DNA of 63,840 nt, filler included, from an uncultured Methanosarcinales archaeon (GTDB lineage Archaea > Nanobdellota > Nanobdellia > Woesearchaeales > CAYSVS01), in the NCBI GenBank assembly GCA_964434475.1. It is 8 parts of 8 records of this genome, joined end to end, with 100 filler letters (N's around TTAATTAATTAA, not from the genome) between each part and the next. Parts side by side here need not be neighbours in the genome. Positions count along the whole stretch, not along the records: positions 26,765 to 34,886 come from CAYSVS010000056.1; 7 more parts are not named here. One strand, written 5' to 3'. How positions within the stretch are numbered: the first letter of the stretch is position 1; each line of letters starts with the position of its first letter. Shown here in pieces: positions 8,887 to 51,252 of this stretch. Below the pieces are notes generated by a model that ran no database searches, was not told where the DNA came from, and saw nothing but the letters and a program-made list of their open reading frames with translations. A program made the translations under genes and the position numbers.

Positions 8887-8986
8887 NNNNNNNNNNNNNN
8901 NNNNNNNNNNNNNNNNNNNNNNNNNNNNNNTTAATTAATTAANNNNNNNNNNNNNNNNNNNNNNNNNNNNNNNNNNNNNNNNNNNN
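8887..8986. other. Artificial contig linker (also 17823-17922, 26665-26764, 34887-34986, 43041-43140, 51082-51181, 59057-59156)
   Basis: N44-TTAATTAATTAA-N44 six-frame-stop spacer. Confidence 0.98.
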
Positions 8987-17822: not shown

Positions 17823-18000
17823 NNNNNNNNNNNNNNNNNNNNNNNNNNNNNNNNNNNNNNNNNNNNTTAATTAATTAANNNNNNNNNNNNNNNNNNNNNN
17901 NNNNNNNNNNNNNNNNNNNNNNTTATTTAACTATTAATTAAAAGTGATAGGAAATCTTTGCAAATTCACACAGATAACAAATCTATGCGACGCGAAAATA

Positions 18001-23361: not shown

Positions 23362-24368
23362 AAATGGAAATAATAGGATATGAGCATGAAAAAAAGAGAA
23401 TTGAAGAGTATATTGGTTTTTTAAGAATTCATTATTCTCAAGATTTAAGGATTTCTAATCAATTAAAAAGGATCAAGAACTTGTTAGATAAAGATAATCC
23501 TTTTTTTGAATATGGAGATATCAAGAATTTTCTTGTTAAAGAGGATGAAAAGACACTAGGCCATTGTTCAGCAATTATAGACAAAAGAAATAAAGATATT
23601 GGATTAATTGGATTTTATGATTGTGTAAAAAATCAAAAAGTAAGCCATTTGTTATTAGATAAATGCATAAATTGGTTGAAAACGAAAGGGTGTTCAAAAA
23701 TTAGAGGTCCTGTAAACCTAACAATATGGTGTGATTATAGATTTATATCTAAATGCAAAAGAAAGCCAGATTTATTTGATCCTTTTAGTAAAGATTATTA
23801 TATCGACTTTTGGAAGAAAAAGGGATTTACAAATGCAGGAAAATATGTTTCTGCTGTAAGACAAGACTTTAATTATGTTATTCCTTATACAAAGGAAGCT
23901 TATGAAAATTTATCTGAACAGGGATTCAAATTAAGAAAATTCAATAATGATTCGGATGATCTAAAATTAATCTTAGATTTAGCGAATAAGATATTTGCTC
24001 AAAGCTGGAATTTTGTTCCGTTGTCTTATGAAGAATTTAGATTTCTTTATGAAGATATTATCAATAATGTTGATCTGTCATTTATTGAAATTGCAGAAGA
24101 TAAAGATGGAAAACCTGTTGGTTTTTGTTTTACTTTACCGCACCCTTACAATAAGGAACAGATAATTCTTAAGACAATCGGGGTTTTACCTTATTTGAGA
24201 AAACAAAATATAGCAGGAGCTTTGCTTTATTCTCAGCATACTAAAGCAAAAAAAGAAGGATTTAGGGAATTTTATTATCCATTGATCAGAGTTGGTAATG
24301 ATGTAACCAAATTTCCTTATGAAGGATATGAACTAATAACAGAATATGAAGTTTTTGAACTTAGTTAA
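23358..24368 (+). CDS. GNAT-fold N-acyltransferase (YghO-like, two GNAT lobes)
   Basis: GLIGFYDC, KIRGPVN, SWNFVP, KTIGVLPYLRKQNIAGAL; ATGA overlap with the kinase. Confidence 0.8.
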   Translation: MKMEIIGYEHEKKRIEEYIGFLRIHYSQDLRISNQLKRIKNLLDKDNPFFEYGDIKNFLVKEDEKTLGHCSAIIDKRNKDIGLIGFYDCVKNQKVSHLLLDKCINWLKTKGCSKIRGPVNLTIWCDYRFISKCKRKPDLFDPFSKDYYIDFWKKKGFTNAGKYVSAVRQDFNYVIPYTKEAYENLSEQGFKLRKFNNDSDDLKLILDLANKIFAQSWNFVPLSYEEFRFLYEDIINNVDLSFIEIAEDKDGKPVGFCFTLPHPYNKEQIILKTIGVLPYLRKQNIAGALLYSQHTKAKKEGFREFYYPLIRVGNDVTKFPYEGYELITEYEVFELS

Positions 24369-26046
24369 GGTATATATTTTCTCCAGATTTCACTCTATTT
24401 AATAAGCATGATGGAACAAGCTTATTATCATATAGCATTGCATCGGGACAGCTATTACAAATATTCCATGAATCTTCAATCTTATCAGGAGCATCTATTA
24501 AAAGAACAACTTGTGAATTAATATAATCTCCATTGTATCTTTTTGCATTTTTGAGTATCGCTCTCACAGATTTATTGGTAAATGCAGGCAATAATTTTGA
24601 TATTTTGATGGGCTTATTCTTGATTGTGATAAAATGCTTATTTTTCTTTTTATAATATCTTTGCTGTATAGATTTGTAAATATCTTTGTCAAAAGATCCT
24701 AGATAATTTCCGTTTTTATAAGCAGACAAAGAAAAAAGCCATGAAATATCCTTTGATTTATTTTTGCCAAGATATGCGCAATAAGATAACCCAAATGCAT
24801 CTTTGACAGCTGAACTAGCTTCTTCCATGGTTAATGCTAACTCTTTATCCAGTGTTTTGTTAGGGAGCATTTCCTTTATTGTGGTAAATACAACCAAATT
24901 AATAATATCTGAATTTTTCTTATAAAAATCTGCTAAGATGGGCAAATCTACAATGTTCTTTTTAGAAAGAGGCATGATGAAACCAAGATTTACTCCTCCG
25001 ATCTTCCTGAATAATTCACAATATTTCTTTCTTATATTATTCATTTCCTTTTCTGATTCAGAATTCCTTTGATATTTGTCAATATGAATAATAAATTCTG
25101 TTGCTCCGTATTTTTTCAAATTTCTTAATCTTTCTTCATTTAGTGCTACAGCATTCGTATATATTTTTGTTTTCAGGTTTTTTGAACTGATATAGCTTAT
25201 TAGTTTTTCAATATGGGGATATAGTAAAGGTTCTCCGCCTGCTAATGATATTGACTGCACGTTTCTGTTATCAATAAACCAATCAACCTGTTTTTTTAGA
25301 TTTTGTAAGTCTTCATGTTTGTTTTTATGGCTTTTTTCTGCTAATCCTCTGTAACATCCAGGACATTTAAATTGACAGAATGTTGTTGGTTCAATCCATC
25401 CATTTGGATTATTGTAAATAGACCAGTTTAATTCAAATAAATTGTCTTTATTTAATAAAGGTTGATTGATAATTATATCATAAGTTTCATCTGCTAAAGG
25501 CTGAAGATCTTCTGGAAAAGATGAATGCCTAAATGGTTTTTTGAATCCAATATTAACATGAGGATTATTATAGGCAATATTAACAGGGAAAATTAAGCTG
25601 TTTTTTACTTCTCTATTTAGATAATTAGCTCCTACTTTTACTTTATACTTCTTATTTTCTTGCTCAAGTTTTCCTGATGGAAATATAAATATTGTTTCTC
25701 CTTTGTTTAAAAGTAGCTTTGATTTCTCAAGAACTGATTTTCCGTCATTTTGTTTTGTAGATATACACCCATAAAGCAATAAAAAAGGTTTTAATAGAAT
25801 ATTCTTCATGTATTTTTCTGCTGTTATAAATCTTAAAGGTATTAGTTTGATGAAGTTTTTTAATGGAATGGAATATGATATCAAGAATGGATCGATCTTC
25901 TTAGGATGGTTGGCAATAATTATGTGAGTTTTGTTTTTTTCTAGTTTAAAATCAATGTTTGTATTAACTTGGAAAATTATTTTTAAAGGTATTCCTATTA
26001 AAAAATAGGTTAAAAATTGCCAGAACATTACTATTATATTTTTCAT
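24361..26046 (-). CDS. Fusion of a PlsC-type lysophospholipid acyltransferase and a radical SAM domain
   Basis: N-half ANHPKKIDP and IFPSG; C-half CQFKCPGC, GGEPLL, CNSCPD...PSC. Confidence 0.88.
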   Translation of the reverse strand: MKNIIVMFWQFLTYFLIGIPLKIIFQVNTNIDFKLEKNKTHIIIANHPKKIDPFLISYSIPLKNFIKLIPLRFITAEKYMKNILLKPFLLLYGCISTKQNDGKSVLEKSKLLLNKGETIFIFPSGKLEQENKKYKVKVGANYLNREVKNSLIFPVNIAYNNPHVNIGFKKPFRHSSFPEDLQPLADETYDIIINQPLLNKDNLFELNWSIYNNPNGWIEPTTFCQFKCPGCYRGLAEKSHKNKHEDLQNLKKQVDWFIDNRNVQSISLAGGEPLLYPHIEKLISYISSKNLKTKIYTNAVALNEERLRNLKKYGATEFIIHIDKYQRNSESEKEMNNIRKKYCELFRKIGGVNLGFIMPLSKKNIVDLPILADFYKKNSDIINLVVFTTIKEMLPNKTLDKELALTMEEASSAVKDAFGLSYCAYLGKNKSKDISWLFSLSAYKNGNYLGSFDKDIYKSIQQRYYKKKNKHFITIKNKPIKISKLLPAFTNKSVRAILKNAKRYNGDYINSQVVLLIDAPDKIEDSWNICNSCPDAMLYDNKLVPSCLLNRVKSGENIYLN

Positions 26047-26664: not shown

Positions 26665-26764
26665 NNNNNNNNNNNNNNNNNNNNNNNNNNNNNNNNNNNN
26701 NNNNNNNNTTAATTAATTAANNNNNNNNNNNNNNNNNNNNNNNNNNNNNNNNNNNNNNNNNNNN

Positions 26765-26998
26765 TGTCTCATTTAGTTCTGTTTTATTTTCCACGTATGT
26801 AATATTTGTTTCATTCAAGTCAATGCTTTCATTCATCCAAGTATCATTGATCATATCAACAATTGTCTCATTCATTATTCCTGCGTTGTAGCTTGCATTT
26901 GTCTCATTGAAAGCGAATGCAAATCCTGAAGCTAGAGCAAGCATCATCAATAATGCAAAAATCATCTGCACGTTCCTTTTTTTAGTCGCGTGCATCAT
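26765..26998 (-). CDS. N-terminus of a secreted glycoprotein (truncated by contig end)
   Basis: Signal peptide followed by many N-x-T/S sequons. Confidence 0.7.
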
Positions 26999-27543
26999 TT
27001 TTCCAGCTTCCTCCTTGATCTATCGTATACTGTCCAGATTGTTCTTGGATCTCTGTTCAACAATTTTGCGATGTCTGTAAGACTAAGTTCAAGAACATCT
27101 TTCAGGTGTTTAACGATGGTTTCTAATACACTCAGTCTTTTGTCAGAAAATATTTCAAGCGGCAAAAATTGTTGAGAATTTGTGTCTAATTTTTCAGGAT
27201 ATTTTTGTGTGGCTTTCTTATAAGTTATAGAAATAGGAATAGGATTTCTGTAGAGTAATTTTGCAATTTCGGTGAATTTTAGCTTATGCTCGTCGCGAAG
27301 GTACTTAACCATGCTTTCTAGGGCACTTAATTTGTCGCTGAAAATAGACAAAGGTATTGATTTTTTTTGCTTTGTTTTTTCTCTTTTGTCCAGCAACTCT
27401 AATATTTTATTTTTATCAATATTATGCTTTTCTTTAAGTTTTAAAAACAAATTTTCTATAGAATCAAGAGCATTGTAAATATCTAAATTGTATTCTTTAT
27501 TATATTGATTACTATGTTCTTTTTTTTTCTTGTTACTGACCAC
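26995..27543 (-). CDS. Tandem-duplicated HTH DNA-binding protein
   Basis: Two copies of PLxIFSDKxLSxLExxVKxLxD...LxxTxIAKLLxRxP. Confidence 0.85.
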   Translation of the reverse strand: MVSNKKKKEHSNQYNKEYNLDIYNALDSIENLFLKLKEKHNIDKNKILELLDKREKTKQKKSIPLSIFSDKLSALESMVKYLRDEHKLKFTEIAKLLYRNPIPISITYKKATQKYPEKLDTNSQQFLPLEIFSDKRLSVLETIVKHLKDVLELSLTDIAKLLNRDPRTIWTVYDRSRRKLEK

Positions 27544-27564
27544 TTAATTAAACACCTGAAAATA

Positions 27565-27797
27565 TATATTATGTAAGTAATAAATGATATTTAAATGTTT
27601 TTATTATATATTATGTAAGGTGTTGTTTCTGTGTTTTATTGATGTTTATTTTTAAGAACGAAAGAAATAGCTCAAATTATGTTCTCTCAGGTTACTTTGC
27701 CCATAATTTTCCTTTTCATTATGTCTTTTTGATTCATTATTTATATTATGTAAGTATAATTCATATATAAATGTTTCTTTTTATTATATTATGTAAG
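27565..27797. promoter_or_regulatory. Four direct repeats TATATTATGTAAG (27565, 27607, 27742, 27785); putative operator
   Basis: Two pairs spaced 42 and 43 bp, each bracketing a minus-strand TATA-like box. Confidence 0.7.
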
Positions 27798-27892
27798 TAG
27801 AATTCAATTGCCAATCTACAAAAACAAAACATTTATATATGGGTATACCTAATACTATACTGAAATATATAAATGGGGTAGAGGTACAAAAA

Positions 27893-28099
27893 ATGAAAAA
27901 AATTTCACTAATATTGGTATTACTGGTAATAGTTGCTTTGCCTTTTGTTTTTGCAAACAATGGAGCACAATTACTAGAAGAAAAAGGCTATAGCGCTAAG
28001 ATAAGCGAAGATACAGAATTATTTCTTGATCCAGAAAACAGTTGCTTGGAAGATTCATGTGAATTGACAAGATCAGGAAATGTTATACAATTCAGCTAA
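27893..28099 (+). CDS. Small secreted protein
   Basis: GAGGT RBS before MKKIS; signal peptide. Confidence 0.6.
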   Translation: MKKISLILVLLVIVALPFVFANNGAQLLEEKGYSAKISEDTELFLDPENSCLEDSCELTRSGNVIQFS

Positions 28100-28550
28100 A
28101 AATATTTTTTAATTTTCTTGCTATAGTCATCTTATATTCTACTTTTATTACTCCTGTATAAACTCCTTCATCTATTCCTTTTGGTATTATTGCTGTGATC
28201 TCTAATTTTTTTGGCTCAGTTATCACAAATTTGTCCTCTTCTATGTCGATAAATTGCTTTATTTCTCCAGAAGATCCTACATAGACTATAGCAGGCTGTG
28301 CTTTGCCTATATCGAGTTCAATAAATTTTTTGACCCTTAATCCTGAAGATACAATGCCGAAATCCAGTATGTCTGTCTGTTTATTTTCAACATTCATGAA
28401 ATCTTCTTTAATTTCTATCTTTGCAGGAAACTCAAAACTTTTTATAGTCTTATATGGAATAAATAGCATAAATATTGCGATAATCACTATACTGACAATC
28501 ATAAGATACACTAACTGTTCCCTGTTAAAAACTGGCTCTTTCCAACCCAT
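28092..28550 (-). CDS. Membrane-anchored Ig-like hypothetical protein
   Basis: N-terminal TM; LDFGIV...GVYTG beta-sandwich pattern. Confidence 0.75.
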   Translation of the reverse strand: MGWKEPVFNREQLVYLMIVSIVIIAIFMLFIPYKTIKSFEFPAKIEIKEDFMNVENKQTDILDFGIVSSGLRVKKFIELDIGKAQPAIVYVGSSGEIKQFIDIEEDKFVITEPKKLEITAIIPKGIDEGVYTGVIKVEYKMTIARKLKNIFS

Positions 28551-28583
28551 GTTAAATATGTTAGAATATGCCTTATTTAAACT

Positions 28584-29438
28584 TTACTCAAATTCCAGTC
28601 TGAATAGCAGTATTTTATGGTATAAGTTTTCAATCAATTCCTTATCCCATCTCTTTATTTTACGAACTATCTGATTTTTATTCAAGTTTAGATCCATCAA
28701 TTGATTTATTTTCAGCATCAGACCATATATTTTTTCTTTTGTATATTTTGACCTTGGTAGGTTTTGATTCAATATATCCATATTTATGCTTATTTTTTCG
28801 ATAGTGTTTTCATCTATTCTTTTTTTCTTTAATTCAGAAAGTATTGTTCTTTTTGCAGTTCCTTTTTTAAGTTCATCAAAAATAAATTCAATTATATTGG
28901 TGTTTTTTTTCTTTCTAATATTTTTCTTTGACTTTAATATTTTTTTATGTTCATGATATTTTTCATACCCTAAGAATATTATCAATAAGCTAACTATTAT
29001 GAAAAAGAGATATTTAGCGATATCGTATGTTTTCTGGTTTATCGCTGTTTTATCTTTTATTTTTAGTTTGATGTTCTGTTCTAATTTTATTTTATATTCT
29101 AAATTTTTTATTATTGGTTCCTTGCTTTCTATACTTAACTTAGGAGAATATTCTATAGGAAAAGCATTTTCAGAAACATCCAATTTTATTTCAATATAAT
29201 ATGGAACGTTTTTCTTTAATGTTGTTTTATTAGGATATATCTCAAACCACTCTTTATATTTGTCTTCTATCTTGAGTAAGAATGTGACATTATCATATCG
29301 CTTTTCTGTTAAAGCAAATCTTTTGCTGTATGTTTTTCCTGCTTCAACTTCTCCAAAATCTATATTCGATATAGATATGGCGGATGCATTTGGTATGATT
29401 ATCATACAAATAACAAGATAGAATATTAATTTATTCAT
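28584..29438 (-). CDS. Secreted single-pass membrane hypothetical protein
   Basis: Signal peptide, IDFGEV Ig-like domain, TM, basic cytoplasmic part. Confidence 0.7.
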   Translation of the reverse strand: MNKLIFYLVICMIIIPNASAISISNIDFGEVEAGKTYSKRFALTEKRYDNVTFLLKIEDKYKEWFEIYPNKTTLKKNVPYYIEIKLDVSENAFPIEYSPKLSIESKEPIIKNLEYKIKLEQNIKLKIKDKTAINQKTYDIAKYLFFIIVSLLIIFLGYEKYHEHKKILKSKKNIRKKKNTNIIEFIFDELKKGTAKRTILSELKKKRIDENTIEKISINMDILNQNLPRSKYTKEKIYGLMLKINQLMDLNLNKNQIVRKIKRWDKELIENLYHKILLFRLEFE

Positions 29439-30457
29439 TCTTTACCTTTGTGCTTAACAATCAATCTTTCAATATCTTGTTTTATACTTGTTTTCAATCT
29501 TGCTCCTATTATTTGAACGATTCTGCTTGCTGCATAGCTTCCAATCTTTCCGCACAATGCAATATCCTTATTATTGCTCAATCCGTAAAGAAAGCCTGCT
29601 GCAAACATATCTCCTGCACCCGTTGTATCTACAGCATCAACAGGAAATCCTGATATCTTATAGAGCATATCGCCTTTCTTGATCAAACTGCCGTCCTTGC
29701 CTATCTTGACGATTGCAATATTGCATAATTTAGCGATTTCATGCACTGCTTCTGTTGGTTCTAACTCAGTCAAAGCTTTTGCTTCTTCCTCGTTTACAAA
29801 AACTATGTCTGCATATGTTTTCACTATTGACAAAAGCTCTGCATGATTTCTTCTTATCAAGTTAGGGTCTGCTAGATCAATACTTATCTTAACGCTATTC
29901 GCTTTCGCTATATCCATGGCATGCAGTGCTGTTTCCTTCAGCAAAGGTTCTTCCAATTGATAGCCTGTAAGATGCAGGAATCCGCTTTGCTTTATATCAT
30001 CCTCAAATATGTCTTCTTTCATCAATTTTAGAGCAACTCCAAGATGTACTGCAAATGTCCTTTCACTGTCAGGAGTTATAAAACTGATAGCTTTACCTGT
30101 AATACCTTGAACCTTTGCAAGTCTATGTGCCATGCTTGCTTTATCTAATGTTTGCTCATAATACATTGCATGTTCATCCTCTCCTACTTTTCCGCAAAAG
30201 ACAACATTTCCGCCTAAATTAGCTATGCCTGCTAATGTGTTTGCAGTAGAATCTCCTGGAGCTATTTTAACATCAAACTCTTTTATCTTTTCCTGTATGT
30301 TTATCAATTGCTCTTCACTGACAAGATGCATGTTGCCCTTTTCAAGATTAAGTTCCATAAGCGTATTTTCATTTACTTTGATAATCATATCTACAAGCGG
30401 ATTTCCTATCCCTACGACATCATGTTTCATTTTATTATCACCTTGTTTTTTGATCAT
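29435..30457 (-). CDS. PfkB-family carbohydrate/adenosine kinase (start probably at MKHDV)
   Basis: GIGNPLVD, PGDSTANT, NEEEA, VDTTGAGDMFAAGF. Confidence 0.92.
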   Translation of the reverse strand: MIKKQGDNKMKHDVVGIGNPLVDMIIKVNENTLMELNLEKGNMHLVSEEQLINIQEKIKEFDVKIAPGDSTANTLAGIANLGGNVVFCGKVGEDEHAMYYEQTLDKASMAHRLAKVQGITGKAISFITPDSERTFAVHLGVALKLMKEDIFEDDIKQSGFLHLTGYQLEEPLLKETALHAMDIAKANSVKISIDLADPNLIRRNHAELLSIVKTYADIVFVNEEEAKALTELEPTEAVHEIAKLCNIAIVKIGKDGSLIKKGDMLYKISGFPVDAVDTTGAGDMFAAGFLYGLSNNKDIALCGKIGSYAASRIVQIIGARLKTSIKQDIERLIVKHKGKE

Positions 30458-30522
30458 GTGTTTTTTTTGATAAGCAATATATAAACTTAACCTATATCTT
30501 TTTTTTATATGGTGCTTTGTCT

Positions 30523-31530
30523 TTATTTGCTATATAATATATTATCTATGGCTTGCGATGCATAGTTGATATAATATTGTATGTTGCTTTTTTCATCAAA
30601 TAATTTTTGTGTATATTTTATCACGTTTTTGTTTCTGCATGCCATATTGCTTAAGTTTGCGTTTCTTTCTTGAAGCATATTTATTAATTTCTTGCAGTTC
30701 ATCTTATTATCCTGTGCATAAAAATATATCATGGGAGCTGTTATCGTAATATTTTTTATCTGTTTTTCTCTTATCTTAGCCCCTATATTTTTGACATTAT
30801 TTTTTTTATCATATACTATAGGATTTCCTATTGTCAGATAAGCTTTAGGCTCAACTTCATATTTATTTGGTGTTTTGGCTATCGCATATATGTCCATCAG
30901 AGCATTCAATAATCCTGCAATAGGTGGTGGAAATCTTTCTTTGTTCTTGATGTTTTTTTTAAAAGTCCAGTCTTCAAAAACCCTGCTGTAATCTATAGTG
31001 GCGGGATATATATATGTTTTTTTGCTGCTTGTCTTTAAAGCATTGCAAACCAGTTTTAATAATCCTGTTTCTGCTTCCTTTACAAACCCATCTTTTGTTC
31101 TTCCGTCTTGTATTGTTACGAATATTGGGTATTTGTTCAAGTCTGAATTTGTTAGCAGTTTCTTAAATCCTTTGATATACTCTCTGTTGCTTGTAATAAG
31201 CTTTCTGTCCACAGCTATCACACCTATCTTTCTTATATCCATAAGCAATGTCTTACCTATCAAAGGAGTAGTTATTCCAGGAATAAAAAGGTTTTTCCCT
31301 CCCAAAAATTTCATTATCTTATTCTTTTTCTTGTACATCGTATATCCTACTAAAATTTGATCTAGCTCGCTTCTGTGTGTAGGTACAATAATTATATTTG
31401 AATCTTCATCAACTATATTTTCTATGCCTTTTATCTCTATTCCTGAGAAAACTTTATTCAGATAATCTGTAACTCTTTTCTCCTCTAACTGGTAATATTT
31501 TTCATCTATGAGATCTTCTATTAGTTTCAT
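30523..31530 (-). CDS. PlsB-like glycerol-3-phosphate/DHAP acyltransferase (catalytic domain only)
   Basis: PTHRSELD (HX4D), GGKNL, QDGRTKDG, IYPATIDYSRVFED blocks. Confidence 0.82.
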   Translation of the reverse strand: MKLIEDLIDEKYYQLEEKRVTDYLNKVFSGIEIKGIENIVDEDSNIIIVPTHRSELDQILVGYTMYKKKNKIMKFLGGKNLFIPGITTPLIGKTLLMDIRKIGVIAVDRKLITSNREYIKGFKKLLTNSDLNKYPIFVTIQDGRTKDGFVKEAETGLLKLVCNALKTSSKKTYIYPATIDYSRVFEDWTFKKNIKNKERFPPPIAGLLNALMDIYAIAKTPNKYEVEPKAYLTIGNPIVYDKKNNVKNIGAKIREKQIKNITITAPMIYFYAQDNKMNCKKLINMLQERNANLSNMACRNKNVIKYTQKLFDEKSNIQYYINYASQAIDNILYSK

Positions 31531-32576
31531 TTTTTATAGTAATCTTCTTTGCTTCTTTTCAGAATATCATCGACAGCTGTTAAACAGTCCTTTTTATCGT
31601 ATATTACGTGATATGCTTCTTCTATGAATGGAGCTTTTATGCCGCAATTTTTCATTATTTTATATAGTGTACTTATAGTATCTGGTCCTTCTGGTCTTTG
31701 TTTTATTCTGTCAAAGTATTTTATTATCTGTTCGATGCTCTTTCCTTCCCCTATCATCCTTCCTACTTGGCTGTTTCTTCCTACTTTTGATGTAACATCA
31801 AGATCACCTATTCCTGCAGGACCTAAGATTGTTCTTTTTGATGATATTCTTCTATATTCTCCGAAATAATGTCTTGTTTTATCTAGTATGTATTCCATCT
31901 CTTTAAGCCTATATCTTAGAAGAGCAGATTCTGTGTTTTTTCCGAATCTTTTGTTTTTATTTTCCTTGCTTTTAACAAGATAATCTCCTATGCCTATTAT
32001 TATTGCATAAGCGTTCTTTAAAGCTCCGCAAACCTGTATTCCAACAATATCTTTGCTTGGCTCAAGTACAAAAAAATCTTTGTTGTAGAATAATCCTATC
32101 AAACCTTTTGCAAGCTTTTTTTTTCTTGATGCTAATGTGGTTTCTGTTATCACTTCTTTGTTTACTTCAACAGCTATATTTCCTCCGCTGATAGCTGCAA
32201 ATCTTTTTTCATCTATGTCTAGCTTATTTTCTAGATATTGGCTTGTTACCTTGATTTTATTCTTTATCTTAAGAAAACCTTTGGAAGCGCATATAGCTAT
32301 AGCTTTATCTTTTATGTTTTCTTTTTTTATCTTTTTTATTGTATCAGGCAGAAATTTAGTATTCACAGCAAATACAAGAAAATCTTTCTCAGCTATCGCT
32401 TCATTGATATCTTCTGTGATGTATATCTTTTTATCTGGTTTAAATTCAGGATATGTATGTGTCTTGTCATAAACCCACAACGTAACATCCTTGCCGTTTT
32501 TTGCAAGAATATTAGCTAATGTAATAGACCATGGTCCTCCTCCTATCTGTGCTATCTTTCTGTTGTTCATCTTCAA
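31527..32576 (-). CDS. gpsA: NAD(P)H-dependent sn-glycerol-3-phosphate dehydrogenase
   Basis: GGGPW, ASKG, SGGNIAVE, GALKNAYAI, AGIGDL, GRN, PEG. Confidence 0.9.
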   Translation of the reverse strand: MKMNNRKIAQIGGGPWSITLANILAKNGKDVTLWVYDKTHTYPEFKPDKKIYITEDINEAIAEKDFLVFAVNTKFLPDTIKKIKKENIKDKAIAICASKGFLKIKNKIKVTSQYLENKLDIDEKRFAAISGGNIAVEVNKEVITETTLASRKKKLAKGLIGLFYNKDFFVLEPSKDIVGIQVCGALKNAYAIIIGIGDYLVKSKENKNKRFGKNTESALLRYRLKEMEYILDKTRHYFGEYRRISSKRTILGPAGIGDLDVTSKVGRNSQVGRMIGEGKSIEQIIKYFDRIKQRPEGPDTISTLYKIMKNCGIKAPFIEEAYHVIYDKKDCLTAVDDILKRSKEDYYKK

Positions 32577-32587
32577 TAATCTAATCC

Positions 32588-33907
32588 TTAAATCTGATTT
32601 TTCTTATAGAGCAATACAGCATTGTGTCCGCCGAATCCTGCTGAGATTTTCATTCCGTATATGATTTCAGGAGCGCTTAATGTATTATTAGGTATTATAT
32701 TAAGACTACATTCAGGATCAAAATTACTATAGTTTGCAGTTGGCGGCAATGTTCCATATTTTAATGCAAGTGCCATAGCTATGAATTCAACAGCTCCTGT
32801 TGCTCCTAGCAGGTGTCCTGTATTTCCTTTTGTTGAGCTTATCCTTAGTTTCTCGGAATATTTTCCAAAAACATTCCTTAATGCTTTAGTTTCTGTTTTG
32901 TCATTTAGAGGAGTAGATGTTCCATGGCAATTGACATACAAAATGTCTGCAATATCTGCTGGTTTTAAACCTGCTTCTTCAATTGCACAATTTATCGCTT
33001 TACTTAATGATTTAGCTTCAGGATCGGGTTGTGTTGGATTCAATGCATCAGATGTTCCGCAATATCCTTCTATTGTCCCATATATGTCTGCTTTTCTTTT
33101 TTTTGCAGTTTTGTAATTTTCAAGAACAATAGCTCCTGCTCCTTCGCCCATAACAAATCCGTCTCTTTCTTTATCAAAAGGTCTGCTTGCAGTTTCAGGA
33201 TCTTCATTTCTCCTGCTTGTAGCTTCAGCATTTGCGAAAGACCCTATACCTATCTCAGTTATTGAAGCTTCACTTCCGCCTGTTACTGCCATCTTATATT
33301 TGTGAGGAAATGCTTTTATCTTTTCATAGCAATTGCCTATTGCGTGAGTAGAACTTGCGCACGCTGTAGTAATACAGGCTGTTTCTCCTTTTAAACCATA
33401 CATTTGAGATATTGTTCCTACTGCTGCATTTGCCATTATAGTTGAGATCAATGTAGGGCTTATTCTTTTTGCAGCAAGCATCTTATCAGATACATCTTTT
33501 CCTTCTTGTGATTTTTGTTTAAATATATATTTTTCAAACTCTTTGCATATTGTAGTTATTCCTCCTATTCCTGACGCGAATAACGAAAACTTATCGTATT
33601 CATTGTAATCCATAGAATCATGTTTAGCGTTTTCCATGGCTTCATTTGAGGCAACAATAGCATATTTGACAAAATCATCTAGTCTTCTGATGTTTATTCC
33701 TCTCTCTTTTTTAAGAAAATTTGAAAATTCTTTGTTAATACCAAAATCTTTTAACTCTGCTGCTAACTGTGTGTGGAAATTAGAAGCATCAAATTTAGTT
33801 ATTTTGTTTATCCCTACTTTTTTGTTCATCAAACTTTTCCAATAATCTTCTAAGTTGTTTCCTATAGGTGTAACAGCACCAAATCCTGTAACTGCAACTC
33901 TTGCCAT
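32588..33907 (-). CDS. fabF: Beta-ketoacyl-ACP synthase II
   Basis: RVAVTGFG, TACASS, SRPFDKERDGFVMGEGAG, HGTST, KGNTGHLLGA, GFGGHN (Cys-His-His intact). Confidence 0.93.
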   Translation of the reverse strand: MARVAVTGFGAVTPIGNNLEDYWKSLMNKKVGINKITKFDASNFHTQLAAELKDFGINKEFSNFLKKERGINIRRLDDFVKYAIVASNEAMENAKHDSMDYNEYDKFSLFASGIGGITTICKEFEKYIFKQKSQEGKDVSDKMLAAKRISPTLISTIMANAAVGTISQMYGLKGETACITTACASSTHAIGNCYEKIKAFPHKYKMAVTGGSEASITEIGIGSFANAEATSRRNEDPETASRPFDKERDGFVMGEGAGAIVLENYKTAKKRKADIYGTIEGYCGTSDALNPTQPDPEAKSLSKAINCAIEEAGLKPADIADILYVNCHGTSTPLNDKTETKALRNVFGKYSEKLRISSTKGNTGHLLGATGAVEFIAMALALKYGTLPPTANYSNFDPECSLNIIPNNTLSAPEIIYGMKISAGFGGHNAVLLYKKNQI

Positions 33908-34052
33908 AAAAATCCCTCCACAAATATTATATGGGGAACAACTTTTTGTTGGTTTTTAAATATTGTACAATCTTAAAATATATTATATAATATAAATATT
34001 GAACACTACAGTTAAAGTATGGCCAAATATAGAAATAAAAAAATAAAATATT

Positions 34053-34784
34053 CTATTCTTCTTTCTTTTCCTCTTTTTTTTCTTCTGCTTCTAAAGATTC
34101 GCCAGCTTCTAATTTTGGCGTTGATTCTTCTATCTCTTTATCAGCTTCATTAAGCAATTCCTGTGCTGTCTCTTTATGATTTTCTGGTGCTGGAGGTTCT
34201 TCAGCTGTTTTTTCTCCTTCTTGTTTTAGTTCTTCTTTATTTGTTTCTTCTGCTGGTTCTTCTTTATTTGTTTTTTCTGCTGGTTCTTCTTTTTTCTTTT
34301 CTTCTGATTCCTCTTTTTTAATGTGCAGAGCTTCTCCTACCTTTTCAGTCGCTTCATCTAATTTTTCTTTTATATCTTCTACAGTATCTTTGGCTTTTTC
34401 TAACATTCCTTCTTTTTCACTCTCTTGCTTTTTTTCTTCAGAATCTTCACTTTCTTTTTTCTTTTCTTCTTCTTTTTGTTCAGGCATATCTTCAGGAGGA
34501 TTTTCTACTGTTTTTTCTTTTTCTGTCTCTTCCGGCAGGTTAGCTTCAGAGATAGGTTCTTTTACATCTTTGGTAGGTTCATGATGTTGTGTTTCTTCTT
34601 CTTCCGATTTTTCAGAGTTTATATCTTCTGAAGCTTCATTTATAAGTTCTTGTGCGCTTTCTTCAGGTATTGTATCTTTTTCAGATTTAGATTTCTCTTC
34701 TTTCTCGAGTATTTCCTCTTCTTCTTCATATGCCATATAACATCCTCCGCATTTCTTACAAGGGTATTTTTCCATAATTATCAC
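34053..34784 (-). CDS. Highly acidic low-complexity protein with N-terminal CxxCxxC
   Basis: E/K-rich; internal KEEPAExTN repeat. Confidence 0.75.
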   Translation of the reverse strand: MIIMEKYPCKKCGGCYMAYEEEEEILEKEEKSKSEKDTIPEESAQELINEASEDINSEKSEEEETQHHEPTKDVKEPISEANLPEETEKEKTVENPPEDMPEQKEEEKKKESEDSEEKKQESEKEGMLEKAKDTVEDIKEKLDEATEKVGEALHIKKEESEEKKKEEPAEKTNKEEPAEETNKEELKQEGEKTAEEPPAPENHKETAQELLNEADKEIEESTPKLEAGESLEAEEKKEEKKEE

Positions 34785-34832
34785 CTAATGTTATCAGAAC
34801 AAACAAATCATATTAATATTTTTTGTTGTAGT

Positions 34833-34886
34833 GTATGTGCATAGCTAATAATTCTTGAAATCATCGCATCTATATTCTCCAGTACA
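34833..34886 (+). mobile_element. Left end of IS-like element B, preceded by target sequence GTTGTAGT (34825-34832)
   Basis: Starts with TIR GTATGTGCATAGCT; identical to the reverse complement of 8987-9040. Confidence 0.78.
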
Positions 34887-34986
34887 NNNNNNNNNNNNNN
34901 NNNNNNNNNNNNNNNNNNNNNNNNNNNNNNTTAATTAATTAANNNNNNNNNNNNNNNNNNNNNNNNNNNNNNNNNNNNNNNNNNNN

Positions 34987-38743: not shown

Positions 38744-38905
38744 ATGGCAAGGGTTAATGTAAAAATACCGGATGATGTACATACTAAAGCTAAACTTATT
38801 TCTATACTTAAAAGACAAACCCTGAACGATTTTTTAGAAAAAGCTATCGCTTCTGCAGTCGAAAAAGACAAGAGCATAATCAAGAAACTAGGTGATAAGC
38901 AATGA
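38744..38905 (+). CDS. Ribbon-helix-helix protein, 53 aa (MARVNVKIPDDVHTKAKLISILKRQTLNDFLEKAI...)
   Basis: Hand-translated; beta-alpha-alpha pattern; ATGA overlap with the next gene. Confidence 0.8.
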   Translation: MARVNVKIPDDVHTKAKLISILKRQTLNDFLEKAIASAVEKDKSIIKKLGDKQ

Positions 38906-39672
38906 AAAGCCATATTATATTTAAGATAAGTATGATTTTTCTTATTTTGTTGATGCCTTTAGTTTTTGCAGATATTAATTTAGGCGATATTAATAACACT
39001 ATTGAGGAAGATTACGTAAATCTTATGGTTAAGCCTCTGGAACTTGACAATTATCTTATTAATGGCGTGACTACGATAATAAAGGCAAATATTGTGAATA
39101 TAGGTTCTAATGATGCTGATCAAGTTATAATAAAATTTTATGTAGACAAAAATTTAGAGGATACCTTCATAGTAGATGAGCTGCCTTCTGGTCAGGATTT
39201 AGCTGTTGCTTTTGACTGGGTTCCAGATGAAGGTATGCACCTTTTGCAAATTATGGTGGACTCATCAAACAAAGAATCAGATATAGAAGACAATATAGCG
39301 AACAAGCACGTAAAAGTAGAGAATATAATACCTGTAAATATAGATAATTTGGACGGCACATTAAGCATGCCTCCTTATTTCGCATTAGATGAAATATCTG
39401 AATTTGAAGTTCAGAGCCATATAACAAATTATGGTAAAGAAGATATAAGGAATTTGCCTGTTGACTTGTATATTGATGGAGGCATAAATATGAAAGGTCC
39501 TGCAAGAAAAACATTGTTTTCACTTAAAGCAGGAGAAAGTAAAGTTTTGACATGGACTTTGACGACAGGCACAAAATACACAAGACCAGGGAATGTAATC
39601 ATATTGAAGATTGCAGATAAACCTGTATCAAACAAAAAAATTACTTATGACGGGGAGCACGGATTTGTATGA
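38902..39672 (+). CDS. CARDB-domain secreted protein
   Basis: I.NIGS..A...FYVD...W...G.H...VDS..ESD..DN. Confidence 0.8.
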   Translation: MKSHIIFKISMIFLILLMPLVFADINLGDINNTIEEDYVNLMVKPLELDNYLINGVTTIIKANIVNIGSNDADQVIIKFYVDKNLEDTFIVDELPSGQDLAVAFDWVPDEGMHLLQIMVDSSNKESDIEDNIANKHVKVENIIPVNIDNLDGTLSMPPYFALDEISEFEVQSHITNYGKEDIRNLPVDLYIDGGINMKGPARKTLFSLKAGESKVLTWTLTTGTKYTRPGNVIILKIADKPVSNKKITYDGEHGFV

Positions 39673-42548
39673 ACGCTAAGACTATTTTTTGGATGTTTGT
39701 ATTCTTTGTTTTTGCTAGTTTTGTTTGTGCTCAAGGTTCTGTATGGACAGGAGCATTAAGCCCTTCAACAGTAAGTATGTGTGGAGAGTACTCTGATCAA
39801 GCTACTATAACAGCATCAAATGTATGGAATGCTGAAACAATACAATTAGAGGACTTGACTGCTGTATTGATAATACCTGATTCATCTGACCTTAACCTGA
39901 TTTCAAGCGAGAGTGTAAATCTAGGCGATGTGGCTGGACAAAGTAAATCAAATATAGATCCTTCGTGGGTAATCGAATGCAATAATAGTATTGCAGGTAC
40001 TTTTACATTGTATGTAAATTATACAACTTCAAACGGATATAATGGTTCATCTATAGATCAAGCTACGACAGAAGTGACAACTTATGCTGATGTGGATAGT
40101 GATGCACCTTTAATATTATCGCATCATCCTGGTGAGTATGTCAATACTCAGTTGATAGAGCTTTATGTAGAAACAAATGAAAATGCGAATTGCAGATACA
40201 GCACTTCTGATGTGTCCTATGATAGTATGTCATCAACCTTTAGCATTACAGGTTCAACAGAGCATAATCGTACTTTAAGCGGATTGACAGAAGAACAGCA
40301 TACATATTATATAAGATGTGAAGATGCTAACGGAAACAAGATGTCAAGCTCATACGCTGTATCTTTTACAGTAGACAAAACTTTGCCTGTAATAACAAGC
40401 CATGAGCCGGAAGCACATATATCAGGAAGTACCACAAATATAAAAGTTGTAACAAATGAATATGCAAAATGCAGGTATTCGAGTATAGCTGATAAAGATT
40501 ATGAAAATATGGAGAACGCTTTAACTAGTGTATATTCTTTAGAGCATAGTAAACCATTATCAGGATTAAGTTCACAGCCTTATACTTATTATGTGAAATG
40601 TATAGATAAGGCAGGAAACGATATGGTAAACGATTATGAGATTAGTTTTGAACAAGATTTGCCGCCTAGTGCTGAGATTGAATTAAGCGTTTCCAGCCCT
40701 TTAAAACCTGGAACATTGGAAGTGACTGTGACAACTTCAGAAGATGTGCAATATAAGCCAATACTTAAATACACTATAGATGGGTCAACAACAGATGTTC
40801 CTTTGTTTGGTTCAGGCAATGATTGGAGCGGATATATGATTATCTCTTCAGGAGATGAAGGCGTAGGTTCGTTTAGCTTTACTGCTACTGACCTTAATGG
40901 TAATGAAGGAACAGAGATAACAGATGGAAGCGTATTTATCGTTGATTCAAATGCTCCTTCAACCCCTATAGATCTTGCAGGAAAGAGTTATTTTAATGGA
41001 GATATAGATCTAAGATGGTATCATGACGGAGAGGATGTATCTGGGTATAATATATATAGATCATCTACTCCAGGCGTATCTATAACTGATTATTTTGATA
41101 ACTGCTCTTCAAAAAGCTATGAAGATAATTCTGCAAAACCAGGAAACACTTATTATTATGCGGTTAGTGCTGTAGATGGTGCAGGAAATGAAGGTCAATT
41201 GTCTTTAGAGATTGAGGTTGTTTCGATAGATGAAGAAGATGAAGATGATGCAGAAGATGGAGAAGATGAAGAATCTACTCAAGAAGAAGAATCAATTTCA
41301 GAAGGATTGGATGTTGATCTGCATTATAAAGTGGACAACAAGGTAGAGGATATCAAGAACCTTATAACTGATGTCGAAGATGCGAAGGATACTATGCTTA
41401 AATCAAATGAAGATATTTCAAAAATGTTAGGGTTTGATGATATTTACTCAGAATATAAAGATAAGCTTGAAAATTTAAAGTCTGATTCAGAAAATTTGAA
41501 GAATAGAGTGATGACTCAATCTGAGCTGAATTCAGAATTAAGCAAGATAAATGTTGAACTTGCATCTATGCGGAAAGAGATACCTGTAATGGTGGATATA
41601 GATGATGAATCAAAGGAAACATATGATCCAGACTCATTAGATATAGAAGAAGCTGTTGAAGAATACCTTAAGTCAAGAAGGATGAGTAATATAGAGTCTT
41701 CTGAAAAACAGGATTTTATAGAAGAGATTACAGCTATGCAGGCAAATTTTATGGTCGAAAATGTTGCAAAGGAACTTAAGATAAAATATTTAGACGGGGA
41801 AAAAGAGTATAAAATATTGATAGAAAAAAATATAGAGTTAAAGGATGATAGTGAAGAACTTATACTGATCGAAACAATACCTAAATCTATTGCAGAGGAT
41901 GTTTCTGAGATTAGTTTTTCAGGTTTAAACTATAAAGTTATCAATTCTGATCCTGTTGTCAAGATAGAATATGATGATCCTGGAAAAAGTGTTAAAATAT
42001 CTTATGTGGTAAATAATAAGGTAGATTCTGCAAAAGGTATAAAAACAATATTTGTCAAGGATTATAACATAGAAAGATCAGAGAGCAAGGAAGAAAACAA
42101 TAAATTTACAGGTGCAGTTATAGGAGATAAAATAGGTTCAAGTTTTGATATTGTTAAGGATAATCTTTCTACAATAGCATTATTGGGAATAGTTGCATGG
42201 CTTTTGTTTGTTAATTATTTTAATAATGGCGGAAGCATAGGTTCAAATATAGGTAAAAATACTAAAGGATTCGGTCAGATGTATGAGATAAAGTCAAAGA
42301 TAAAAGATTATTTTGATACTTCTAGGCAATTGAAATTGATAAACGGCAAAAGGCTGAAGGACTTAAATGATCTGTATTCTTATTTGAATAGCATAGATAA
42401 TAATGTGTTTAGGTTTCATCAGCAAAATAATGATTTCAGTTATTGGACAGGCAATGTTTTAGGTTTTAAACAGTTTGCATCAAAGATAGGTTATGCTAAA
42501 GACCAGAAAGAGATGCAAAGGATGATGATTGATCATTTCAGAAGATGA
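39669..42548 (+). CDS. Large surface protein: Ig-like repeats, FN3, acidic linker, coiled coil, TM, cytoplasmic DUF5752-like domain
   Basis: TNExAxCRYS repeats; GYNIYRS...YYYAVSAVD; NGKRLKDLNDL...FRFH..NNDFSYW. Confidence 0.85.
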   Translation: MNAKTIFWMFVFFVFASFVCAQGSVWTGALSPSTVSMCGEYSDQATITASNVWNAETIQLEDLTAVLIIPDSSDLNLISSESVNLGDVAGQSKSNIDPSWVIECNNSIAGTFTLYVNYTTSNGYNGSSIDQATTEVTTYADVDSDAPLILSHHPGEYVNTQLIELYVETNENANCRYSTSDVSYDSMSSTFSITGSTEHNRTLSGLTEEQHTYYIRCEDANGNKMSSSYAVSFTVDKTLPVITSHEPEAHISGSTTNIKVVTNEYAKCRYSSIADKDYENMENALTSVYSLEHSKPLSGLSSQPYTYYVKCIDKAGNDMVNDYEISFEQDLPPSAEIELSVSSPLKPGTLEVTVTTSEDVQYKPILKYTIDGSTTDVPLFGSGNDWSGYMIISSGDEGVGSFSFTATDLNGNEGTEITDGSVFIVDSNAPSTPIDLAGKSYFNGDIDLRWYHDGEDVSGYNIYRSSTPGVSITDYFDNCSSKSYEDNSAKPGNTYYYAVSAVDGAGNEGQLSLEIEVVSIDEEDEDDAEDGEDEESTQEEESISEGLDVDLHYKVDNKVEDIKNLITDVEDAKDTMLKSNEDISKMLGFDDIYSEYKDKLENLKSDSENLKNRVMTQSELNSELSKINVELASMRKEIPVMVDIDDESKETYDPDSLDIEEAVEEYLKSRRMSNIESSEKQDFIEEITAMQANFMVENVAKELKIKYLDGEKEYKILIEKNIELKDDSEELILIETIPKSIAEDVSEISFSGLNYKVINSDPVVKIEYDDPGKSVKISYVVNNKVDSAKGIKTIFVKDYNIERSESKEENNKFTGAVIGDKIGSSFDIVKDNLSTIALLGIVAWLLFVNYFNNGGSIGSNIGKNTKGFGQMYEIKSKIKDYFDTSRQLKLINGKRLKDLNDLYSYLNSIDNNVFRFHQQNNDFSYWTGNVLGFKQFASKIGYAKDQKEMQRMMIDHFRR

Positions 42549-43040: not shown

Positions 43041-43140
43041 NNNNNNNNNNNNNNNNNNNNNNNNNNNNNNNNNNNNNNNNNNNNTTAATTAATTAANNNN
43101 NNNNNNNNNNNNNNNNNNNNNNNNNNNNNNNNNNNNNNNN

Positions 43141-50846: not shown

Positions 50847-51252
50847 AATTGCTAACAAAAGAAAAGGCGTTTCTTTATGCATAGGAAACAACATACAAAA
50901 GTATCACATAGAGTTTGATGATAAAGATGCAACTTTTAAGATATATCTTCCCAGAAGATTAAATAAAAGACACATAAAAACAATAGTTTCGCAAGGAAAT
51001 AAAGAGAGAGAAATTCTACATAATAATTACTGGAGTTGTGCAGATTTTTCTAAAAACCGAAAAAATTAGGTAGTTGAACACNNNNNNNNNNNNNNNNNNN
51101 NNNNNNNNNNNNNNNNNNNNNNNNNTTAATTAATTAANNNNNNNNNNNNNNNNNNNNNNNNNNNNNNNNNNNNNNNNNNNNATTTATAAACCAACTTGAT
51201 CAAATAAATTTTGCAGAATTATCGAATTTCACAATAGCCTAATTTATATATC

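Follow-up and report, generated by a model that had tools for sequence, protein, structure and literature searches.

The lipid divide, with archaeal ether lipids built on glycerol-1-phosphate (G1P) on one side and bacterial ester lipids built on glycerol-3-phosphate (G3P) on the other, is a central problem of early cell evolution, and for their membranes the DPANN archaea are considered dependent on other cells. Bacterial-type lipid genes have already been published for these archaea. The parts of the literature considered here describe fatty-acid genes of bacterial kind, together with a bacterial G3P dehydrogenase close to genes of the methylerythritol phosphate (MEP) pathway, in some Woesearchaeota (Castelle et al. 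2021, PMC8204110); GpsA in Woesearchaeota and PlsC and PlsY in DPANN bins, with no archaeal PlsB or PlsX and with a membrane role of archaeal GpsA, PlsC and PlsY thought unlikely (Coleman et al. 2019, PMC6431249); FabG, FabI, FabZ and a cyclopropane synthase in DPANN (Zhang et al. 2024, PMC10936187); and, among these three sources and PMC13159169, Mss/Ger homologues in DPANN. In one supplement file of Castelle et al. (PMC8204110), the only 'glycerol-3-phosphate' family is fam00008, which is of the GlpA/GlpD type (K00111/DAO), and the same file has no occurrence of 'acyltransferase', 'ketoacyl' or 'PF01553'. Within the texts that a full-text literature search brought up, we found no description of a GPAT1/PlsB-type enzyme or of a FabF-GpsA-acyltransferase operon in DPANN, and such an enzyme and its pairing with GpsA appear to be unreported. 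Here we describe an operon of this composition in a stretch of 63,840 nucleotides (63.8 kb, called the window throughout) from a metagenome bin of the Woesearchaeales (GCA_964434475.1), and we focus on its third gene, which encodes a minimal G3P acyltransferase (GPAT) of 335 amino acids (aa), called mini-GPAT below. The three genes of the operon are the following.

32588..33907, minus strand: KAS II/FabF-type beta-ketoacyl synthase of 439 aa, with which the operon opens (PF00109 and PF02801)
31527..32576, minus strand: GpsA-type NAD(P)H-dependent G3P dehydrogenase, 349 aa (PF01210 and PF07479)
30523..31530, minus strand: minimal GPAT1/PlsB-type G3P acyltransferase (mini-GPAT), 335 aa (PF01553)

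All three are intact, co-oriented open reading frames (ORFs), running from 33907 to 32588, from 32576 to 31527 and from 31530 to 30523 in the ORF listing, exactly where the sequence-only reading of this stretch had placed them, with an 11-nt gap between the genes of KAS II/FabF and GpsA and a 4-nt overlap of the ATGA type between those of GpsA and the acyltransferase. The GpsA gene starts with TTG and has an in-frame ATG two codons later. No RNA dataset is listed as containing the operon; a single DNA run, from the metagenome of a microbial mat, contains it and may be its source.

Mini-GPAT matches PF01553 with 44.5 bits, and GPAT_C (PF19277), which we detected in 4 of 17 annotated relatives, was not detected in this copy. 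Of the NCBIfam models, PlsB fits mini-GPAT best, with 55.6 bits vs. a cut-off of 618.5 and with profile positions 265-452 of 799 covered, which places the 335-aa protein outside the PlsB equivalog (TIGR03703/NF003441, an architecture of ~800 aa). The earlier label 'PlsB-like' thus holds in the sense of a GPAT1/PlsB-type core and fails in the sense of a PlsB equivalog. Among proteins of known structure, sequence matches were found to PlsB (9VUQ, 1.7e-6) and GPAT1 (8E4Y), and none to a plastid GPAT. An exhaustive HMMER search of 1.84 billion representatives returned 372 matches at E ≤ 1e-3, 12 at 1e-10 and 2 at 1e-30, one of these two being mini-GPAT itself; after a few proteins of 260-470 aa, the next matches were PlsBs of ~800 aa, aligned over residues ~280-460. 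A word-based homologue search for the acyltransferase retrieved only the query.

The sequence-only reading had called the catalytic motifs of all three enzymes essentially intact, and the alignments bear this out. In mini-GPAT, the HX4D motif I reads HRSELD and aligns to the corresponding motif of PlsB and GPAT1; its H52 and D57 are invariant in alignments of 12 and of 48 sequences, as are R144 and G148, and R109, G143, P176 and E186 are nearly invariant in both. R109, G143-R144-T145 and P176, which we take from the PlsB/GPAT literature to be motifs II, III and IV with the roles assigned there, are kept in at least 90% of the 48 sequences. The Glu ahead of motif III in PlsB is replaced by Asp in mini-GPAT.

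The AlphaFold (AF2) model of mini-GPAT, predicted from the 48-row alignment, has a pLDDT of 92.2 and a pTM of 0.91. A Foldseek search with this model ranked human GPAT1 (8E4Y) first (E = 3.4e-11, TMq 0.69), followed by squash GPAT (1.9e-4) and PlsC (3.3e-4). VIA alignment of the model with residues 174-586 of human GPAT1 covered 302 of the 335 residues at 2.7 Å with a Z score of 28.1, and the Z scores against plastid GPAT (15.6) and PlsC (14.5) were far lower. The protein has no hydrophobic or transmembrane segment (maximum KD19 hydropathy of 1.28). Judged by its sequence and its predicted fold, mini-GPAT is the catalytic core of a GPAT1/PlsB-type enzyme and not a PlsB equivalog. In a quick tree of 61 sequences, it pairs with the copy of genome G001, an archaeal relative (SH-aLRT 99), and the 16 full-length PlsBs form one starred group nested among the short forms; because the root is a midpoint root only, the direction of this nesting is not established. 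The ESM Atlas neighbours of mini-GPAT, which serve as a lead only, are bacterial clusters of 317-443-aa 'hypothetical proteins' with PF01553, with or without GPAT_C.

GpsA matches PF01210 with 91.7 bits (cut-off 23.1) and PF07479 with 99.1 bits (cut-off 25), and it scores below the cut-off of all 14 GpsA-type NCBIfam models (best NF000942, 182.1 vs. 257); by these scores it is a divergent member of the family. Its best match in the PDB is the Thermotoga maritima enzyme (1Z82, 1e-26), to which its GGGPWS, SKG, GALKN, GDLDVT and GRN stretches align, positions that presumably provide the glycine motif of N-terminal dinucleotide binding and the catalytic Lys, Asp and Arg-Asn. The ESM Atlas neighbours of GpsA are mostly bacterial clusters.

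The KAS II/FabF protein matches PF00109 with 157.8 bits and PF02801 with 118.3 bits, passes the KAS II subfamily model NF005589 (427.5 vs. 387) and just misses the fabF equivalog TIGR03150 (453 vs. 493.75). Its best PDB match is KAS II of Synechocystis (1E5M, 2.7e-95, residues 3-438), and the Cys, His and His positions in TACASS, HGTSTP and TGHLLG align to those of 1E5M, where we take them to form the catalytic triad. Relative to 1E5M, the window protein carries two insertions, of ~7 and ~14 residues. Among the candidates scored, the closest homologues are at most 48% identical, and those that have a name are bacterial (Tissierella, Omnitrophota and Elusimicrobiota).

We further asked how often the acyltransferase recurs, using 300 genomes of 0.6-2.1 Mb each sampled from the order of G001 and searched with the acyltransferase family profile; the tallies include the unpublished genomes G122, G113, G210, G133 and G208. 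A PF01553-type match of some kind is present in 113 of the 300 genomes, and a strong mini-GPAT match (E ≤ 1e-20) in 29, including G122 and G113. Both genomes of G001's family (2/2) have a mini-GPAT match, and the copy of G033 sits on a contig of 255 kb. Of 20 loci that were fetched, 17 were annotated (L026, L030 and L034 were left out). GpsA adjoins mini-GPAT in 4 of 18 annotated loci (L001 of G001, L021 of G101, L022 of G255 and L025 of G022) and, by coordinates, also in G004, so that the two genes are paired in 5 of the 10 mini-GPAT genomes that have GpsA. GpsA itself was found in 10 of 26 genomes with mini-GPAT vs. 5 of 20 without it, in a search that was positive in 10 of 10 control bacteria and in 0 of 4 model archaea. 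G001 has two GpsA genes, a canonical one (161 bits; L049, contig 12, 7582-8971), which adjoins a cytidylyltransferase-like gene possibly serving CDP-glycerol, and a divergent one beside mini-GPAT (L001, 6823-9032).

Surroundings of a different kind were seen at two loci. In G033 (L016, contig 1, 4064-9145), mini-GPAT follows a CARDB protein and a 934-aa surface protein with Ig domains, a pair resembling the CARDB/959-aa pair at 38902-42548 of the window, on the contig next to that of the operon. In G124 (L033, contig 3, 8858-12896), a 446-aa weak family member with no Pfam match lies ~1 kb from a cluster of CarS, CDP-alcohol phosphatidyltransferase and phosphatidylserine decarboxylase.

On balance, and with slightly better than even confidence, we propose that G3P made by GpsA is acylated by the minimal GPAT1-type enzyme with salvaged acyl chains. 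GpsA would reduce dihydroxyacetone phosphate (DHAP) to sn-glycerol-3-phosphate, and the soluble 335-aa mini-GPAT, translationally coupled to it, would transfer an acyl chain to G3P, giving lysophosphatidic acid, which might then enter the membrane. The acyl chains would most likely be salvaged from fatty acids or lipids of a host or the environment; salvage is favoured over de novo synthesis because the searches turned up neither a carrier protein nor a malonyl supply nor any other gene of type II fatty-acid synthesis (FAS II). The operon's KAS II has its catalytic residues in place but no visible partner, and the role of this enzyme is the weakest link in the scheme; it possibly elongates or condenses salvaged acyl thioesters.

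A number of findings weigh against this proposal, the first group of which concerns divergence. The closest match of mini-GPAT among the 1.84 billion representatives, the 354-aa protein of G001, is only 34% identical; the exact order FabF-GpsA-mini-GPAT was seen only in the window; and in comparison with the genes in the same positions of locus L001, identity is 27% for GpsA and 33% for the acyltransferase, as against 47-73% for the flanking genes (p152, 47%; x177, 50%; ICMT, 55%; LonC, 55%; PLD, 58%; PfkB, 73%). Such fast divergence of GpsA and mini-GPAT could mean relaxed constraint or a changed substrate.

A changed substrate would be expected if the same enzymes served another chemistry, with DHAP as acceptor (the acyl-DHAP route of GNPAT, a homologue of GPAT1, with the GpsA-like reductase acting afterwards), with G1P or a lysolipid as acceptor, or with a product that does not go into a bilayer, such as the anchor of a glycolipid or polymer. 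In keeping with this explanation, the GpsA copies that adjoin mini-GPAT in G001, G255, G022 and G004 score low (49-73 bits) and have longer open frames (404-486 aa), whereas the canonical copies among the relatives score 115-195 bits, and the presence of a second, canonical GpsA in G001 suggests a division of labour between the copies. PlsY and PlsC are described as accepting both stereo-forms of glycerol phosphate in the part of PMC13400652 considered here, which counts on the same side. However, the motifs for substrate and catalysis in the window GpsA are the canonical ones, mini-GPAT retains the G3P-binding motif residues that mark GPAT-type enzymes, and no alkyl-DHAP synthase or other gene specific to such a route was seen on the operon contig; we consider another chemistry unlikely.

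Relaxed constraint, in turn, would fit relic or idle genes, that is, genes acquired from bacteria long ago that now drift in a reduced genome with little or no present function. In a tree of 65 rows (every second of the 119 matches listed, plus 4 FabFs from the order), the end branch of the window FabF is 1.03 long vs. a median of 0.055, a further point against our proposal; the end branches of the order's other FabFs are also long (0.53-2.14). This quick tree sets the window FabF apart from those of G059, G101 and G027, all of these branches being long, and the data neither establish nor reject a single origin of the window FabF with three of the order's FabFs (p-AU = 0.506). Of the 300 genomes of the order, 22 have FabF-like genes at E ≤ 1e-30, a tally that includes the unpublished G183, and 6 of the 300 exceed the equivalog cut-off; no ketoacyl synthase was found in G001. 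Long branches, low identity to the positional orthologues of G001, the absence of FabF from that genome and pathway partners that were not found would all be natural for a relic. Against it stand the three open frames, the retained catalytic residues, the translational coupling, the high confidence of the predicted fold and the pairing of GpsA with mini-GPAT in several divergent genomes, and small DPANN genomes rarely retain dead genes. We therefore regard idle genes as very unlikely.

The second group of findings against the proposal concerns the rest of the lipid pathway. FAS II partners were sought across the 63.8 kb of the bin. The 92 window ORFs that were scanned (5 + 49 + 38 small) include no phosphopantetheine-binding (PP-binding) protein, that is, no acyl carrier protein (ACP), in agreement with the sequence-only reading, which had seen no ACP gene, and no AcpS, FabD, FabH, FabZ, FabI, carboxylase, acyl-activating enzyme, PlsY or fatty-acid kinase. 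The same reading had suggested a search of the genome for pathway genes, which we ran in the relatives instead. PP-binding proteins were found in 5 of 46 genomes, all 5 of them mini-GPAT genomes and none of them among the four that bear FabF; FabD was found in 0 of 12 and FabZ in 3 of 12; carboxyltransferase, DegV and PlsY each in 0 of 5; AMP-binding proteins in 1 of 5; and CarS and CDP-alcohol transferase each in 2 of 5, both being absent from G001. Because the completeness of these metagenome-assembled genomes (MAGs) was not reported, the absences are weak evidence. UbiA was found in 4 of 5 relatives, and geranylgeranylglyceryl phosphate synthase (GGGPS) exceeded its cut-off in 1 of 46, namely G001, so that the lineage may still use ether lipids, again to the detriment of our proposal; at the same time, a single occurrence in 46 genomes fits the published view of DPANN without lipid synthesis of their own. 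The model for G1P dehydrogenase (PF13685) is uninformative, because it was also positive in 9 of the 10 bacterial control genomes. Taken together, the gene content suggests that this lineage, which also appears mostly to lack the archaeal core lipid genes, has a module for the lipid backbone with no acyl supply in sight.

These counts also bear on the possibility of a full de novo synthesis of bacterial-type phospholipids, in which acpP, acpS, fabD/H/G/Z/I, acc, plsC and cdsA would lie elsewhere in the genome and FabF would elongate the chains that feed mini-GPAT. FabF keeps its catalytic triad, passes the KAS II cut-off and heads the operon, only 63.8 kb of the bin was read, and fragments of such a pathway do occur: FabZ in the three relatives counted above, ACP and AcpS beside thiolase/DUF35 in G123, and AcpS in G145 and G138, in addition to the FabG, FabI and FabZ published for DPANN (PMC10936187, as far as considered here). 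Conversely, the counts for FabD and carboxyltransferase are zero, the four FabF-bearing genomes of the 46-genome set have no PP-binding protein, and the neighbours of FabF are not FAS II genes but unrelated ones, namely family-less proteins in G101, LonB in G027 and, in G059 (gene order LonB, mini-GPAT, FabF, Kae1), a mini-GPAT that is encoded on the other strand. Only in G034 does FabZ stand beside a FabF, which is a fragment. In G093, a KAS-like gene lies at most 1.4 kb from an acyltransferase match. The window FabF looks orphaned: neither the window nor the closest relatives yielded an ACP, FabD, carboxylase, PlsY or fatty-acid kinase. De novo fatty-acid synthesis is not supported by these data, and we hold the complete pathway to be quite improbable. 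Hence, of the earlier suggestion that the cell can 'build or remodel' bacterial-type phospholipids, remodelling or salvage fits best, given intact, operonic enzymes for making G3P and for its first acylation, and building de novo finds no FAS II partners.

Two candidates from other contigs of the window were rejected. A FabG-like short-chain dehydrogenase/reductase (SDR) at 49936-50667 looks generic and was set aside as evidence of FAS II: it scores as glucose/gluconate dehydrogenase type (NF005559, 225.9 > 215) and falls short of FabG (TIGR01830, 211.3 < 297.75), which also counts against the de novo pathway. The PLD-LTD gene at 59231-60625 was considered as a cardiolipin or phosphatidylserine synthase and matched only nuclease models of the NucT type, below cut-off; the PLD and ICMT genes (59231-61187) are not on the operon contig.

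Among the relatives, two clusters contain acyl-handling genes. In G138 (L051, contig 8, ~4048-8932), AcpS, an MFS transporter, an AMP-binding protein, a protein with PP-binding and acyltransferase regions (preceded by an AMP-binding C-terminus) and an alpha/beta lysophospholipase-like hydrolase are encoded in a row, and the AMP-binding gene appears split over two ORFs; we take this cluster to resemble the bacterial LplT-Aas system of lysophospholipid uptake and re-acylation. In G145 (L028, contig 8, 1206-12901), a mini-GPAT with GPAT_C has as its neighbours thiolase, DUF35, a MaoC dehydratase, an SDR, a fatty-acid desaturase, LigT and AcpS. Next come a LarA-like and a HAD gene and a 1,035-aa fusion of AMP-binding, PP-binding and HMG-CoA-reductase-like parts, and a canonical GpsA is found 8.8 kb away on the same contig.

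The proposal presupposes that the operon belongs to the archaeon. The window is not one molecule: it consists of at least 8 MAG contigs joined end to end, with seven linkers (N44-TTAATTAATTAA-N44) delimiting eight pieces that are sorted by size from 8,886 bp down to 7,875 bp, the last piece being truncated, which is the typical look of contigs of a metagenome bin laid end to end. Five linkers are at 8887-8986, 17823-17922, 43041-43140, 51082-51181 and 59057-59156, and the other two enclose the operon contig (26765-34886, 8,122 bp), whose length is exactly that of the longest contig on record for these proteins.

26665..26764, no strand: artificial linker (N44-TTAATTAATTAA-N44) at the low end of the operon contig
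34887..34986, no strand: artificial linker (N44-TTAATTAATTAA-N44) at the high end of the operon contig

Because the contigs were joined artificially, gene neighbourhood across linkers is meaningless. Two scaffold gaps of N100 also lie inside contigs (12363-12462 and 45558-45657), and an ORF called as L7Ae (12350-12991) passes through the first of them. The sequence-only reading had placed the operon among archaeal-style genes, and this is the one of its observations that is not confirmed as worded: aEF-2 (TIGR00490, 1066.8 bits vs. a cut-off of 738.45), L7Ae, S28e and L24e are on the contig at 8987-17822, and not on the operon contig, where we found no universal archaeal marker, another point against our proposal. 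Because the markers are on another contig, their physical linkage to the operon is not shown within the window, and the place of the contig in the bin needs arguments of its own. An 8.1-kb contig of a co-occurring low-GC bacterium, for instance of the candidate phyla radiation (CPR)/Patescibacteria, in which such genes are ordinary, might have been binned in error. The missing marker, the purely artificial connection to the archaeal contigs, the bacterial names of the closest FabF homologues and the mostly bacterial ESM Atlas neighbours of GpsA and the acyltransferase could all be explained in this way, and the tetranucleotide correlations among the window contigs (r of 0.92-0.98) are circular evidence because bins are built on them. 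In favour of an archaeal origin, GC, GC3 and codon usage of the three operon genes match those of 18 other window genes (r of 0.87-0.88; range 0.76-0.94).

The comparison with G001 argues otherwise. A locus scan with the two-sequence alignment A2 returned 2 loci, and a scan with GpsA alone gave 149 pattern matches, of which 0 were confirmed; the only close relative of the acyltransferase in the GTDB species genomes is L001, which is contig 19 of G001 (15.9 kb). Its gene order is NMD3, Lon_C protein, small protein, ICMT/PEMT, PLD-LTD, GpsA, acyltransferase, PfkB and a 153-aa protein, and NMD3 is an archaeal/eukaryotic family. Thus, a single archaeal contig joins the content of two window contigs with NMD3: the order GpsA, mini-GPAT, PfkB, p152 is that of the operon contig, and the order LonC, small protein, ICMT/PEMT, PLD-LTD is that of another contig of this bin. 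The latter block, with the PLD-LTD protein being NucT-like, lies at 59231-63716 on the minus strand of the window and at 2098-6466 of L001, and precedes GpsA/mini-GPAT in G001. This suggests that the contigs at 59157-end and at 26765-34886 stand side by side in the actual genome, where an insertion of FabF and of the acidic gene upstream of it would separate the two blocks; there were no contig-end overlaps of ≥12 bp between any two of the eight window contigs. The aEF-2 of the bin is 85% identical to that of G001 and 83% to that of G033, a distance consistent with the 73% identity of PfkB.

Other relatives point in the same direction, as single contigs, including the 255-kb contig mentioned above, carry mini-GPAT in the midst of archaeal genes for information processing. 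The mini-GPAT contig of G123 carries topo VI-B, TFS, RIO1 and NMD3, that of G019 aIF5B, that of G138 a Hel308-type helicase, ELP3 and an ATP-dependent ligase, and that of G059 an archaeal LonB and Kae1, and a class I Tyr/Trp-tRNA synthetase is very often found on the relatives' mini-GPAT contigs. Cluster-mates of the related proteins are named Candidatus Woesearchaeota (including one of relative P0005), and others Nanoarchaeota. Mainly on the synteny with the contig of the archaeal relative, the operon contig is very probably archaeal, as the binning check proposed by the sequence-only reading had left to be decided, and a binning error is highly improbable. With the exception of the archaeal surroundings, what that reading had observed was confirmed; its interpretation is supported in part, and nothing in our analysis shows the bacterial host that it had envisaged.

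The remaining features of the operon contig are as follows.

34053..34784, minus strand: acidic 243-aa protein upstream of FabF (ORF with no Pfam match)
33908..34052, minus strand: AT-rich spacer of 145 nt upstream of FabF, read from the sequence as presumed promoter/leader
29435..30457, minus strand: PfkB-family sugar/nucleoside kinase (PF00294, 162.7 bits)
28092..29438, minus strand: two genes with no Pfam match, 284 aa and 152 aa (ORF listing)

The spacer has GGAGG 8 nt ahead of the FabF ATG and AT-rich, TATA-like runs, which are to be expected because the DNA is ~30% GC. PfkB begins 65 nt downstream of mini-GPAT and is a conserved neighbour, as the identity to the gene in the same position of L001 shows. 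A 4-nt overlap links the PfkB stop to the 284-aa gene, which is followed on the same strand by the 152-aa gene (p152), the counterpart of the gene after PfkB in L001. Scans of the window for tRNAs and with Rfam gave no match.

A further acyltransferase is encoded on the contig at 17923-26664.

24361..26046, minus strand: 561-aa protein in which a PlsC-like acyltransferase is joined to a Tes/GDGT-MAS-like radical SAM domain

The protein has an N-terminal helix followed by PF01553 (residues 34-157) and PF04055 (218-341), and its score for TIGR00530 (45.6 bits) is below cut-off. The fused form was found in only seven other clusters, and Nano/Woesearchaeota and CPR bacteria commonly have the radical SAM part (~360-390 aa) on its own. 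The AF2 model of the fusion (pLDDT 91.7) has its best PDB matches in 7TOL/7TOM (GDGT-MAS/Tes; E = 2e-12, 410-423 columns), and other radical SAM enzymes match it at 8e-9 or worse over ~240-260 columns. If its contig is from the same cell, the modelled fusion is a candidate for the second acylation and for the coupling of lipid tails, and it may be a lipid-tail coupler shared by both ultra-small lineages. Mss, the bacterial synthase of membrane-spanning lipids, is described as a remote relative of Tes with homologues in candidate phyla and DPANN in the part of Sahonero-Canavesi et al. (2022, PMC13159169) considered here. On the plus strand of the same contig, at 20968-24368, the gene of a 797-aa PEP-synthase-like protein (PPDK_N and PEP-utilizer; below all NCBIfam cut-offs) overlaps by 4 nt that of a 336-aa protein with a C-terminal GNAT domain, and this pair converges on the fusion gene.

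The most far-reaching interpretation of these observations is that a DPANN lineage that has lost most of archaeal lipid synthesis itself builds ester lipids of bacterial chirality, with mini-GPAT and GpsA making the backbone, with scavenged acyl chains, and with the PlsC-like/Tes-like fusion finishing membrane-spanning lipids, and that the short GPATs are the ancestral form of PlsB/GPAT1. The acyl donor might then be independent of ACP, or the transfer might be a transacylation. We find this combination doubtful; if it is true, these cells would be natural carriers of a 'wrong-side' or mixed membrane.

The more limited reading, of G3P acylated with salvaged chains, also has a bearing beyond this locus, within limits set by a theme already in print, an incomplete pathway and a genome that is a fragmented bin. 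It adds a core enzyme of the GPAT1/PlsB type, widespread within a single archaeal order, soluble, only 335 residues long and repeatedly paired with the gene that sets G3P stereochemistry. The gene pair is small and can be cloned, which allows a direct test for G3P ester lipid synthesis by archaea and for the donor that it would use, and mini-GPAT offers a naturally minimal form of enzymes whose family is of interest to medicine and biotechnology.

Compared with known systems, the window FabF shares the active site and a full-length alignment with FabF of E. coli (2GFW) and KAS II of Synechocystis (1E5M), and differs from them in its two insertions, its very long branch and the lack of a FAS II partner nearby. 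The PlsX/PlsY and FakA/FakB-PlsY routes have the same role as that proposed for mini-GPAT, namely placing salvaged fatty acids on glycerol phosphate, although PlsY is a membrane enzyme of an unrelated family (PF02660, vs. PF01553 for mini-GPAT) that uses acyl-phosphate as donor; because neither PlsY nor DegV was found in the five mini-GPAT relatives searched, mini-GPAT looks like an alternative to the PlsY route rather than an addition to it. The plastid GPAT (ATS1; squash 1K30/1IUQ and Myrmecia 8IA1) is, like mini-GPAT, a soluble member of the same superfamily, with ~360 aa, but it has another N-terminal helical domain and is a clearly poorer structural match than GPAT1 (Z scores of 14.6-15.6). 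Its donor is acyl-ACP, and in contrast to this route no ACP was found with mini-GPAT. Closest of all are GPAT1 (8E4Y) and PlsB (9VUQ; TIGR03703). Mini-GPAT is not even half as long as PlsB (~800 aa) or GPAT1, has neither the N- and C-terminal domains of PlsB nor any membrane segment, and is 15-18% identical to GPAT1 in structural alignments; nevertheless, it shares with these enzymes the fold over the whole of its 335 residues, the HX4D motif and the motifs downstream of it.

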